Translations under genes and position numbers: made by a program
DNA from: Candidatus Woesearchaeota archaeon
Lineage (GTDB): Archaea > Nanobdellota > Nanobdellia > Pacearchaeales > GW2011-AR1
Assembly: GCA_964419275.1 (NCBI GenBank)
Contig: CAYQOY010000004.1
Coordinates: forward strand, 3,114 to 55,634
DNA: 52,521 bases
Reading direction: 5' to 3'
Notes under the pieces: generated by a model
Databases searched by the model: none
Told to the model about the DNA's origin: nothing
Seen by the model: the letters and a program-made list of their open reading frames with translations, nothing else
Part shown: positions 921 through 4,109 of the stretch, piece after piece
How the letters are laid out: each line of letters opens with the position of its first letter
Numbering within the stretch: position 1 is the stretch's first letter

Positions 921-1280
921 TTATATTCTTAGTCTAATATTAATTATATCTGCATTTAACACTGGCCTTAAGCGTTTTCTGTTTTTTGTGGCTTCTTCTT
1001 TTAATTCAATGAATCCAAATCTGTGTAAAAGCTTTACATCGTCGTTAACCGACTTGAATCCTCGTTTAAGTTTTTTAGCTAAATCATAAATAGACTGAGG
1101 ATTTTCTGTTTTGATTGTATGAAGAATGCGCGCTTTTTCATTGCTTAACAACTGTCTTAATGCAGAAATACCCTCGAAGTCGTAGTTTTTTTTGGAAGGT
1201 TTTGTTCTTCTGAAAATAGAGAACGCTCCTTTGGTTTGAAAGATTGAAATCTCTCTTGTTTTACTTATTTCATTCGCCAT
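921..1280 (-). CDS. Winged-HTH DNA-binding protein (HVO_A0114/COG4190-like)
   Basis: Motif LLSNEKARILHTIK..NPQSIYDLAKKLKRGFKSVNDDVKLLHRFGFIEL. Confidence 0.75.
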   Translation of the reverse strand: MANEISKTREISIFQTKGAFSIFRRTKPSKKNYDFEGISALRQLLSNEKARILHTIKTENPQSIYDLAKKLKRGFKSVNDDVKLLHRFGFIELKEEATKNRKRLRPVLNADIINIRLRI

Positions 1281-1431: not shown

Positions 1432-1446
1432 CGAAAGCTTTATAAA
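1432..1446 (+). promoter_or_regulatory. BRE-TATA promoter 1 upstream of S-layer gene
   Basis: CGAAAGC followed by TTTATAAA (1439-1446). Confidence 0.55.
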
Positions 1447-1501
1447 TAAAACCTTTTTTTAGATAGGGTTTATGACTTCTCAACTAAGGCTTATCGTAAG
1501 C

Positions 1502-1509
1502 TTTTTAAA
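1502..1509 (+). promoter_or_regulatory. TATA promoter 2 upstream of S-layer gene
   Basis: AAGC-TTTTTAAA. The predicted start site at about 1531 coincides with hairpin ACACC-GTTAA-GGTGT (1532-1546). Confidence 0.55.
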
Positions 1510-1563
1510 GGAAAACCATTTTAACCATAATACACCGTTAAGGTGTTCTCGTGGGGAGTAAAA

Positions 1564-1695
1564 ATGTATAAAACAATAAGAAAATTAGGTTTAATCATAT
1601 TCACCCATCAGGGTAGTAATACCCCACAACTATCAGGATGGATGTCGTTGCCTTCGGCAATAAATATTAATATAGCTGAAAGGAGGTTAAACTAA
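1564..1695 (+). CDS. Possible 43-aa upstream ORF in the S-layer leader (MYKTIRKLGLIIFTHQGSNTPQLSGWMSLPSAININIAERRLN)
   Basis: Translated by hand. GGGGAG lies 5 nt before ATG; the stop lies 8 nt before the S-layer ATG. Below the ORF-track cutoff. Confidence 0.35.
   Translation: MYKTIRKLGLIIFTHQGSNTPQLSGWMSLPSAININIAERRLN
1602..1660 (+). ncRNA. Structured cis-RNA element in the S-layer 5' leader
   Basis: CCATC/GATGG stem encloses GGGTA-GTAA-TACCC (GNRA tetraloop hairpin), followed by TTGCC-TTC-GGCAA. Confidence 0.55.
1681..1687 (+). promoter_or_regulatory. Shine-Dalgarno site of S-layer gene
   Basis: AGGAGGT ends 16 nt upstream of ATG 1704. Confidence 0.55.
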
Positions 1696-1703
1696 ACGAG
1701 AAA

Positions 1704-4109
1704 ATGAATTTTAAGAAAATTACAGCGATCGGAACCAGTGTTTTGATTGCAGGTATGACAATGGGCCTTGCTGCTGCAGCAACTTACCCAGCTCCATTCG
1801 TACAGAACGGTGCAGGTAATTTCGCAGTAGTTTATGGTACAGGCGCAGGCGTTTCAGCAACTGATCTTATAAGTGCTACAGCTTTGGCTGATGCTTTATC
1901 TGATAAAGTAACCAGCACAGTAGGATTAGGTGATGAAAAAGTTCAAATTGACGCTGCAGGAAACAAACTTACTTTCGAAGAAGCTATAAATACAGTAAGA
2001 GAGAAGATAACATCAACTCACTTACCAACACTTTTTGCTGCTAGAAAAATAAGAGATACTCCTACCGGCTCAATTGACTACACACAATGGATGGAATTAA
2101 GTGCTGACTCTGTTACTTTCGACACCCTCGGTGGTGATGAAGACAATTACAGAATCAATACTGATTTAGCTAGTGATGTTAGACCTGTATTGCACATTGA
2201 TCAATCCTCAGGCGCTGCTTGGGATCTTGTAGTAGATTTCGACAAAGCTGTTGATTTCACCAGAGTAAGAAATGGTGAAAAGTTGGTTATTGCAGGAAAA
2301 GAATATTCTGTTGCAAAGGATTTGACAGGGACTGGTGATCTAGTCTTGTACGCTTCCTCAAAAACAGTAACTATTCCAGCTGGCTCAAGTGAAGCTATTG
2401 TCGTTGATGGTAAAAGTTATACCATTAGCGTCGAGGGTGCTAACACTGATGCAGCTACTCCAACTGCAGTTATCTATGTTGACGGCGAAGCTGACACCGT
2501 AGAAGAAGGAGATACTGTTTATTCAGGGGACCAAGAGTTCTACATAAATAGAATCTTCATGCAGACAATTCCAACTCAAGCTGCTAGTGTTGAAATCTTC
2601 GCAGGTGCTGAAAAGCTTACCTTGCCTTATGCAGGTGGAACTGTTGAGATTGATGGAGAAGATGTTGATGGAGTTGAAGTTGCAATTACTAAGACTACAA
2701 ACCTTACTGATGTAACAAAACTTACATTTACCTTTACCCCATCCAACCTTGACTTAGATACTGACGAAGCTAATTACCTAGAAATTGGTGAAACTATTGC
2801 TGACCCTGTTTTCGGAACTTTCGCATTATCCTTTGACTCTGCTTCAATGGATTTAAAAGATAGTGCTAAAGGTGTTGTTGAATTCAAGAGAGTAGCTGAA
2901 AAGTTACAACTCAAATTCACAAACAGAAACGGAGATGAATATACCTTCATTCCAATTGTAGATAATAAGGCGACAGCTATGGAATGGCATGATAACTTCT
3001 ATGGAACTAACACAGCTGCTTTAGTTAAGAATGATCTTGTTATTTTACAAGAAGGGGCAAGTGCTAAGAACGCTATTACCAGAATTGCTAAAGTAACCAG
3101 TGCTGTTAATGGAGACGAAATTACTTTCGACGATATTTCTACAGGAGCTAAAACAACTGTAGAAGACGGAGATAGAATTTGGTCTACAACAGGAGCTTCA
3201 TTTACTGCAGGTGCTTATGCATGTAACAACGTGACATTAAGCTACGACTATGCACCATACGCTCCCGCAACAGCAAATGCAACCAGAACAAACACAACAT
3301 ATGTAATGGAAGGTTGGTTCTTAGGAACAACTACAGGATGTTCGTATCAAGCCCCAGCTAGTGGCGACAACGTCACTAATGCTCAGGCTATTGCTGCAGG
3401 TATAACTGCTGCAGGTACAAACTACATGTATCCAATGCTTCCTCTTTACACACAAGAGAATGCAAGAATTACCCTTACAGATGCAAATGATGCAGTAATT
3501 AGAGAACAATACGATATTTCCGGAGTAGAATTCCCAATGAATTTTACCTTTGACAGTGGTCTTGACGGAGAATTTGTTATTGAATTGTACTCTTCTGACG
3601 CAGACTGGAGTTACGCTGCTGATGATGAAGGTGAAAATGGTTATTACTTATCTGACTTCGGTACTTATGCTGAATCAGACTTAGAAGATGACGCACTTGT
3701 AACCTTCTACATACCATCTGAAGAAGTAACATACAATGTTTACGTTGGTGCTACTGCTGAAGCTGAGGCAGAAGAAGGTGCAATCCTTGTAAGAGATAGC
3801 GAAGTTGCTAGTGTTGCTACTAAGAACTTAATTGTTGTTGGTGGTAGCTGTATCAACTCTGCTGCTGCTACATTGATTGGCGGAGCTAAGTGTGGTGACG
3901 CATGGACTGCTGCTACAGAAGCTGGAACTGGAAAGTTCGTAATCAAGAGTTATGCAGATAATGCATTAACTAGTGAACTTGCTGTACTTGTTGCTGGTTA
4001 TGAAGTTGCTGATACTGCAAACGCAGTGTCTTACTTCCAAAACAAAGTAACAGACACAAGTAAGAACTATCTTGGAACTAGCGCTATTTCAGCAACCGTA
4101 GTTGCCTAA
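1704..4109 (+). CDS. S-layer protein (Methanococcales-type S_layer_N / S_layer_C termini)
   Basis: Signal peptide MNFKKITAIG..., then YPAPFV..G...AVVYGTGA...D. C-terminal KNLIVVGGSCINSAAA..LVAGY. Acidic, Thr/Ala-rich, strongly biased codons. Confidence 0.9.
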   Translation: MNFKKITAIGTSVLIAGMTMGLAAAATYPAPFVQNGAGNFAVVYGTGAGVSATDLISATALADALSDKVTSTVGLGDEKVQIDAAGNKLTFEEAINTVREKITSTHLPTLFAARKIRDTPTGSIDYTQWMELSADSVTFDTLGGDEDNYRINTDLASDVRPVLHIDQSSGAAWDLVVDFDKAVDFTRVRNGEKLVIAGKEYSVAKDLTGTGDLVLYASSKTVTIPAGSSEAIVVDGKSYTISVEGANTDAATPTAVIYVDGEADTVEEGDTVYSGDQEFYINRIFMQTIPTQAASVEIFAGAEKLTLPYAGGTVEIDGEDVDGVEVAITKTTNLTDVTKLTFTFTPSNLDLDTDEANYLEIGETIADPVFGTFALSFDSASMDLKDSAKGVVEFKRVAEKLQLKFTNRNGDEYTFIPIVDNKATAMEWHDNFYGTNTAALVKNDLVILQEGASAKNAITRIAKVTSAVNGDEITFDDISTGAKTTVEDGDRIWSTTGASFTAGAYACNNVTLSYDYAPYAPATANATRTNTTYVMEGWFLGTTTGCSYQAPASGDNVTNAQAIAAGITAAGTNYMYPMLPLYTQENARITLTDANDAVIREQYDISGVEFPMNFTFDSGLDGEFVIELYSSDADWSYAADDEGENGYYLSDFGTYAESDLEDDALVTFYIPSEEVTYNVYVGATAEAEAEEGAILVRDSEVASVATKNLIVVGGSCINSAAATLIGGAKCGDAWTAATEAGTGKFVIKSYADNALTSELAVLVAGYEVADTANAVSYFQNKVTDTSKNYLGTSAISATVVA

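Follow-up and report, generated by a model that had tools for sequence, protein, structure and literature searches.

A conserved, pseudoknotted candidate leader RNA of the S-layer gene in DPANN archaea

What keeps the leader of an archaeal surface-layer (S-layer) gene nearly constant while the gene behind it diverges? As a rule, no protein of an archaeal cell is more abundant than that of the S-layer. To our knowledge, almost nothing is known about how DPANN archaea, which cannot be cultivated on their own, control gene expression. The question is raised by a stretch of 52,521 nucleotides (nt) from a Candidatus Woesearchaeota archaeon (assembly GCA_964419275.1, contig CAYQOY010000004.1, positions 3,114 to 55,634), here called the window and numbered from its first letter. 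The region of interest, about 1532-1703, lies directly upstream of the S-layer gene and would form a leader of 172 nt, counted from the predicted start site. A preliminary description, made from the letters of the window, had proposed a structured cis-regulatory RNA under selection at this place, and every string that it quoted is found at the position given for it. The proposal survives because conservation and covariation, on which it hinged, were both found among orthologous leaders.

A conserved and covarying fold

S-layer loci were collected through protein matches, contig look-ups, and genome and metagenome scans, of which the metagenome scan yielded one locus and the genome scan six. 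Scans of viral contigs for further leaders returned chance matches or matches to the Shine-Dalgarno (SD) sequence only. The window and its closest relatives (L001, L002, and L025-L028) form a clade of seven sequences. Seven further lineages (L006 and L013-L018) carry a leader, called type A, that is clearly homologous but diverged, which brings the comparison to eight lineages. All eight are independent lineages among related DPANN archaea. Other kinds of long leader occur at L003, L012, and L010 (type B), and at L023, L007-L009, and L011. Nearly all loci retain a divergent winged helix-turn-helix (wHTH) gene and an intergenic region of 370-470 nt.

Six members of the window clade were compared in pairs. 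Between 1524 and about 1760 their identity is 96-100%, apart from a drop to 91% in the spacer 1564-1603. Upstream of the proximal promoter it is 72-91%, and in the body of the S-layer gene 50-60%. Between the window and L001 or L002, the leader (1532-1703) is 92-98% identical, compared with 64-88% DNA identity for the coding neighbours and 65-73% for the S-layer gene. No other stretch in 7.5 kilobases (kb) is as conserved. In L025-L028, the same leader precedes an S-layer protein of 708 amino acids (aa), only 17% of which aligns to the protein of the window; in one relative the signal peptide of this protein is shared as well. The identity contrast within the clade and the recurrence of the leader before this different protein together make it the most constrained sequence of the locus.

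The constraint is accompanied by a fold (Table 1). The P2-P3-P4 region of the window, folded alone, forms P2 enclosing P3 and then P4, with a P2 core of CCAUC (1605-1609) and GAUGG (1637-1641) that is extended by CA/UG. The same architecture is obtained for nine of ten sequences folded alone (z from -1.5 to -3.3), with P2 sequences that differ from one another, so the outer stem of the preliminary description is borne out. In the columns of the MAFFT alignment, P2 reaches only 58-78% pairing, a poor score that is due to insertions and deletions. P3 and P4 were predicted independently by RNAalifold from the MAFFT alignment of the core. Cells of P3 are 96-100% paired, with variation among A-U, G-U, and G-C. 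P4, the third hairpin proposed earlier, is paired in 100% of its cells; its fourth pair reads C-G in three lineages and U-A in the other five, and its loop is UUC, UUA, AUA, or CUA. Taken together, the cells of P3 and P4 are 98.9% paired, against 19-57% with the partner strand slid, and their covariation was matched by 3 of 500 shuffles (one sequence per lineage). The G-U pairs of P3 and P4 would be C-A mismatches on the other strand, which assigns the structure to plus-strand RNA.

Not all of the hairpins seen at first withstood the comparison. Inside P2, a hairpin with a GNRA loop (GGGTA-GTAA-TACCC, 1611-1624) followed by a 12-nt linker had been drawn. That hairpin is missing from the RNAalifold prediction and is paired in 66.7% of its cells, a value equalled by 107 of 500 shuffles, and it is absent further out. 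The loop GTAA is GTCA in L001, L002, and L026 and is thus not GNRA there. Hairpin and linker are both replaced by the conserved hairpin P3.

The loop of P3 reads (A)CCC(U/C)A(U/C) in every lineage, and its partner lies at the other end of the leader, in a G-rich motif that is absent from the earlier fold. This G-motif belongs to a block, UCUnAU(A/G)GGGG, that is conserved in all lineages just behind the predicted start of the transcript. In 7/8 lineages, no upstream sequence complements the P3 loop better than this block, which mostly occupies the same place in the transcript. Complementarity amounts to 6-7 base pairs (bp) in all eight. In the window clade the strands are GUGGGG and CCCCAC, whereas all other lineages have AUAGGG and CCCUAU, so that two pairs differ in both partners. 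At a seventh position, the pair is A-U in L013, G-C in L017 and L018, and G.A elsewhere, which brings the pairs with changes in both partners to three. Cells of the pseudoknot are 91% paired compared with 42-67% with the partner slid, and the covariation was matched by 2 of 500 shuffles, again with one sequence per lineage. For the whole model (11 sequences), the corresponding values are 86.8% and 33-50%, and none of 500 shuffles matched the covariation. These alignments indicate a hairpin-loop pseudoknot that is kept by compensatory changes. The paired hexamer leaves 3-4 free nt on the 5' side of the P3 loop and 0-1 nt on the 3' side, a geometry that resembles known loop-loop and loop-strand complexes. 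In L006, L013, L017, and L018, the G-motif is itself part of a hairpin loop, so the contact there would be a kissing interaction.

Type-B leaders have a P3-like hairpin with a CCCUA loop (L003, 1100-1121; L012, 44-65; L010, 2869-2893). They share the SD block, and a larger multi-stem closed by GGCC takes the place of P4. No significant upstream pseudoknot partner was found in L003, L012, or L010; the best reaches 4 bp and is matched by more than 50% of shuffles.

Table 1. Features of the S-layer locus in the window
Feature	Position	Strand	Basis or remark
Divergent winged-helix gene	921..1280	-	PF25212, HVO_A0114-like; outside the RNA
Distal promoter-like element (AAGCTTTATAAA..AAAACC; TFB-recognition element (BRE)/TATA)	1435..1455	+	Exact motif copy; conserved in all type-A and type-B relatives
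Proximal promoter-like element (AAGCTTTTTAAAGGAAAACC; BRE/TATA at 1498-1509)	1498..1518	+	Conserved in 8/8 lineages
P1 hairpin ACACC-GTTAA-GGTGT at predicted 5' end	1532..1546	+	Sequence, relatives
G-motif UCUCGUGGGGAGU	1547..1559	+	5' pseudoknot strand GUGGGG at 1551-1556
Variable A-rich spacer	1560..1593	+	Contains ATG (1564) of a non-conserved 43-codon open reading frame (ORF)
Conserved block AUCAUAUUCAC	1594..1604	+	CA at 1602-1603 opens stem P2
P2-P3 domain	1602..1644	+	Per-sequence folding, RNAalifold, pair counts
P2, CA.CCAUC/GAUGG.UG (CACCCATC/GATGGATG)	1602-1609/1637-1644	+	8 pairs, one C.A mismatch
P3, GGUAGU/ACUAUC	1612-1617/1629-1634	+	11-nt loop at 1618-1628
Pseudoknot 3' strand CCCCAC in P3 loop	1622..1627	+	Pairs with GUGGGG 1551-1556
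P4 hairpin UUGCC-UUC-GGCAA	1648..1660	+	All cells paired across lineages
Conserved block AUAG-N3-UGAAAGGAGGUUA with Shine-Dalgarno AGGAGG at 1681-1686	1672..1689	+	Leader comparison
A-rich spacer from SD to start codon	1687..1703	+	17 nt; 100% identical within clade
S-layer protein gene	1704..4109	+	801 aa, signal peptide, PF05124 (Pfam S_layer_C match), ATG at 1704

Outside the pairing core, the 5' hairpin P1 held up in part of the relatives as a sequence and in most of the others as a shape. Its CACC/GGUG stem is kept in 4/8 lineages (the window clade, L013, L014, and L016) with loops GTTAA, TTTGGG, GTTG, and GTCTG, and most of the rest have other hairpins. Hairpins of unrelated sequence lie at most about 10 nt from the predicted 5' end in L015, L003, L010, L023, L007, and L009, and most S-layer leaders of the group, among them types without the pseudoknot, have a hairpin at the predicted start. 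Covariation was looked for inside the P1 stem across relatives and was not found. These observations fit selection on the presence of structure at the 5' end, whatever its sequence. The A-rich spacer after the G-motif is the most variable part of the leader in the clade (91% identity, 11 variable columns); across lineages, it is anywhere between 0 and about 135 nt long and cannot be aligned. It is followed by AUCAUAYUCAC, which is found in the window clade, L006, L014, L015, and L016, and partially in L017.

The leader ends in a ribosome-binding region. The SD block hardly varies among the leaders of type A, type B, and L023, and the only perfect TGAAAGGAGGTT in the whole window is the copy in this block. 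GGAGGT occurs in the window at the frequency expected by chance, and a crude survey found an SD-like 5-nt motif upstream of only 7/43 large ORFs. SD-led initiation is thus the exception in the window, as had been remarked at first for most of its genes. The SD had also been called perfect. It is perfect and invariant; its placement is less so, with 17 nt to the AUG. The corresponding distance is 8-16 nt in the leaders of relatives, and most of the remaining SD-led genes of the window have 5-7 nt. An extra AACUAAACGAG in the SD-AUG spacer is common only to the window and L006. In the RNAalifold consensus, the SD block takes no part in pairing. Consensus and single-sequence folding gave no conserved helix that would mask the SD or the AUG, the pairing partners of the SD differing between lineages. 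A search between 1532 and the ATG at 1704 found no intrinsic terminator of the oligo-T kind. An independent small RNA was considered and rejected, as there is no terminator ahead of the S-layer gene.

The start of the leader is predicted from the proximal of two promoter-like blocks, near-identical (AAGCTTT(A/T)TAAA..AAAACC), 63 nt apart, and both conserved in all type-A lineages. Exact copies of the motif occur in the 52-kb window only at 1435 and 1498. We take these blocks to be promoters from the archaeal BRE/TATA consensus, and from their arrangement we infer that they act in tandem. In archaeal promoters, the TATA box is centred near -26/-27. A start site is accordingly predicted at about 1531-1533, some 30 nt after the proximal BRE/TATA, where the preliminary description had placed it too. 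The distance from the start of the TATA box to the G-motif is 45 nt in 4/8 lineages and in every member of the window clade, 39-40 nt in two lineages, and longer in L006 and L015 (88 and 110 nt). Directly after the distal TATA box lies an inverted repeat, AAAACC-N12-GGGTTT (1449-1471), which is kept with other spacer sequences in L014-L016, L018, and L025, and in a longer form in L006. The repeat may serve as an operator or as a hairpin at a transcript end.

No match to the element was found among described RNAs. A cmscan of the whole window against Rfam 15 at gathering thresholds found only two tRNAs, neither of them in the leader, as had been expected. With E up to 10 over 1250-1800, five noise matches scored 13-17 bits against thresholds of 36-70. 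ARAGORN detected no tRNA in the leader region, and a literature search for a described DPANN S-layer leader RNA returned nothing relevant. Compared with shuffled sequences, the 186-nt region folds better (z = -2.63; equalled by 2/200). A covariance-model search of the 52-kb window found one copy of the element, and no second motif, G-motif, or promoter copy elsewhere in the window rises above chance.

A proposed stabilising leader and its alternatives

The preliminary description had offered several functions for the leader (stabiliser, translational enhancer, protein-binding site, or ligand sensor), a list too broad to fail; within it, the evidence leans towards the first two. We hold with moderate confidence, arguing from comparative sequence, that about 1532-1703 is a conserved, structured, cis-acting 5' leader of the S-layer messenger with a constitutive stabilising and translation-promoting role. 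A stabiliser or enhancer is favoured because the leaders have no conserved alternative pairing, no SD-sequestering helix, and no terminator. The leader would be transcribed from the proximal of the two tandem promoters. P1, a compact P2-P3 domain locked by the pseudoknot, and P4 would shield the transcript from 5'-end-dependent and endonucleolytic decay, and the folded 5' region would keep upstream sequence from interfering with the ribosome-binding site. The strong extended SD could make initiation efficient in a genome that seldom relies on an SD. The tandem promoters would add transcriptional strength, and the result would be a high constitutive output for the most abundant protein of the cell. 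The comparison itself shows conservation, covariation, and architecture; the transcription start and the effects on stability and translation are inferred from it.

Several points weigh against this explanation. The minimum free energy structure of the full-length leader of the window favours other, non-conserved pairings. The SD is not consistently open in nested thermodynamic folding (unpaired probability 0.27-0.66), and the 17 nt between it and the AUG make a poor fit to a leader built purely for enhanced translation. Both the start of the transcript and its continuation into the S-layer gene are predicted. The covariation comes from only eight lineages and few events, both key swaps of the pseudoknot fall in one lineage, with a roughly estimated chance of coincidence of about 1%, and the sequences used to test the structure are those from which it was derived. 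In addition, the flanks of the G-motif, AUCAUAYUCAC, and AUAG-N3-UGAAAGGAGGUUA are over-conserved for simple stabilising hairpins, which hints at a specific partner.

Such a partner leads to the next explanation, which we regard as possible but doubtful. The same fold would be a regulatory sensor, either a protein-binding site or a riboswitch-like aptamer, that modulates stability or initiation. It might respond to excess S-layer protein in a feedback, to an RNA chaperone or a nuclease adaptor, or to a small molecule tied to envelope synthesis. The strong conservation of the unpaired blocks (the G-motif flanks, AUCAUAYUCAC, the P3 loop UUACCCUAU, and AUAG-N3-UGAAAGGAGG) between spacers that cannot be aligned speaks for a sensor, and a compact pseudoknotted core is typical of aptamers. 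The core found here is pseudoknotted and covarying, a feature that is shared with riboswitches but not specific to them. A rival of the G-motif for the CCC of the loop exists in the window clade alone, namely GGG at 1611-1613; the hairpin of the earlier fold competes at -21.1 kcal/mol against -24.3 kcal/mol for the P3 model. However, this competing hairpin is not conserved beyond the clade, and the missing terminator and SD- or AUG-hiding helix leave a switch without its usual parts. Similarity to an Rfam riboswitch is likewise lacking even at E up to 10, and the element occurs once per locus, with no second motif-bearing gene to indicate a regulon. More narrowly, the core of G-motif, P2-P3 loop, P4, and single-stranded blocks might serve as a riboswitch- or protein-responsive sensor that tunes S-layer synthesis, or as a 5'-proximal exonuclease block that works like viral exonuclease-resistant RNAs (xrRNA), which we think rather unlikely. 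If true, a sensor or exonuclease-blocking fold would be the first in these uncultivated, genome-reduced archaea.

Conservation could also act on the DNA. The two complementary motifs would then be inverted operator copies for the wHTH regulator, the leader would be a recombination anchor for swapping S-layer bodies, or both. The wHTH gene is syntenic in nearly all lineages, the ends of the S-layer gene are conserved around a hypervariable middle, the same leader stands before very different proteins, and operator copies would co-vary too when the specificity of the regulator changes. However, the spacing from motif to motif varies from about 35 to 180 nt, and the second motif always occupies a hairpin loop, on a stem that co-varies. 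G-U pairing is specific to one strand, and selection on DNA offers no rationale for the covariation of P4. Recombination accounts for the identity within the clade but not for pairing preserved across lineages with unalignable spacers. On this balance, an origin in DNA-level conservation is improbable.

A leader peptide of 43 aa (ATG 1564 to TAA 1695), whose translation would couple to or gate that of the S-layer gene, is highly improbable. The ORF is open in 7/7 sequences of the window clade, with an SD-like GGGGAG 5 nt upstream and a stop 8 nt before the S-layer AUG. Against a peptide, the ORF is absent from L013, L015, and L016, and the ORF of L006 is unrelated and runs through the conserved block in another frame. 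All 10 variable codon positions in the clade are non-synonymous and none is synonymous, there is no Pfam match, and the ATG lies in the least conserved spacer.

Chance pairing without function in an ordinary long intergenic region is hardly credible: short stems are common in AT-rich sequence, and single-sequence tests of the pseudoknot give p of about 0.002-0.07 per lineage and are not significant in L006, but the compensatory changes, the slid-partner controls, and the rank of the leader as the most conserved stretch in 7.5 kb contradict it.

Known leaders and significance

A stabilising role has precedents among messengers of abundant envelope proteins. In stabilisers of the Escherichia coli ompA type, 5'-terminal hairpins guard such a messenger against 5'-end-dependent decay. 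Unlike ompA, which acts in the bacterial context of RNase E and RppH, the leader described here would depend on an archaeal counterpart, which we assume to be 5'-3' exonucleases of the aRNase J or aCPSF2 type.

S-layer messengers of Lactobacillus have half-lives of 14-15 min that are attributed to a long structured 5' untranslated region (UTR), and they are transcribed from two promoters (PMC3666127). The slpA leader of Lactobacillus acidophilus and L. crispatus (Boot 1996; Narita 2006), which is credited with an exceptionally long messenger half-life, is reviewed in the same source. The leader of the window would be like it in the long structured 5' UTR before an S-layer gene, the tandem promoters, and the 5' stem-loop, with the start site being a predicted one here. 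However, slpA is bacterial, shares neither sequence nor fold with this leader, and has no described pseudoknot, and the stability proposed here is deduced from sequence comparison.

In Methanosarcina, the S-layer gene slmA1 (MA0829/Mbar_A1758) has a mapped 5' UTR of 154-159 nt that is more than 91% conserved between species (PMC3361143). Secondary structures are predicted in it, and its role is stated to be unknown (PMC3361143). Both cases are archaeal S-layer genes with a long conserved leader, mapped in slmA1 and predicted in the window. They differ in that slmA1 belongs to another phylum and an unrelated S-layer family and has no reported covariation-supported fold or pseudoknot; homology between the two was not detected, although their sequences were not compared directly.

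Pseudoknotted aptamers of Rfam (such as preQ1, SAM-II/V, fluoride, and guanidine-III) offer a further likeness in their compact 5' UTR position, a loop that pairs with a distal strand, and an SD nearby. Unlike them, the leader gives no match at E up to 10, keeps its SD outside the pseudoknot, and has no conserved alternative pairing. A structured S-layer leader thus belongs to a known class, whereas the pseudoknotted architecture and the distribution in DPANN archaea are new.

Pairings that are supported by covariation can be mutated and restored, and they provide a handle on messenger stability and translation in DPANN archaea. The leader is also a candidate high-expression cassette in a genome with rare SD-led initiation. 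As a sequence marker, it finds S-layer genes whose proteins have diverged past recognition. The combination of a constant leader and signal peptide with hypervariable bodies bears on surface variation in host-dependent archaea.

Neighbouring genes and related loci

The intergenic region spans 1281-1703 (423 nt), with the wHTH gene on the minus strand on one side and the 801-aa ORF on the other. Protein matches place the homologues of this ORF among S-layer proteins in metagenome-assembled genomes (MAGs) of Woesearchaeota and Pacearchaeota. Within the clade, the 5' end of the gene (to about 1840) and its 3' end (about 3800-3900) are conserved, and its body is hypervariable at the nucleotide level (50-60% identity). 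From the alignments, the constant leader and signal peptide before a variable body look like cassette-like surface variation.

The wHTH gene lies beside the S-layer gene in synteny in L001, L002, L013-L016, L018, L023, and L025. Its product, 117-119 aa long, is divergently encoded in nearly every related locus and is a candidate for a dedicated regulator of the S-layer promoter region. A literature search for HVO_A0114 found nothing relevant. Ahead of the wHTH start codon, at a distance of 13 nt, is a palindrome, TTCTCC-CTC-GGAGAA (1293-1307), that is kept in the clade with small changes. In minus-strand RNA, it would put the SD-like GGGAG/GGAG of the wHTH gene inside a hairpin. Pairs of HEPN (HepT-like) and nucleotidyltransferase genes of the toxin-antitoxin type flank the S-layer gene in L003 (39-691) and lie downstream of it in L018-L021.

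Two contigs are filed under other groups, L006 (PXAT01000057.1) under an Ectothiorhodospiraceae MAG and L007 (CAZQLC010000004.1) under a Methanosarcinales MAG. Both carry DPANN-type S-layer loci and are probably mis-binned. The viral contig L029 (IMG/VR, 22% GC) contains at 3195-3263 the sequence UAUAGAAUUGAAAGGAGGUUAAAAUG, which is the extended ribosome-binding block of the S-layer leaders without the upstream structure. It may come from a virus of this archaeal group that borrows the strongest ribosome-binding context of its host.

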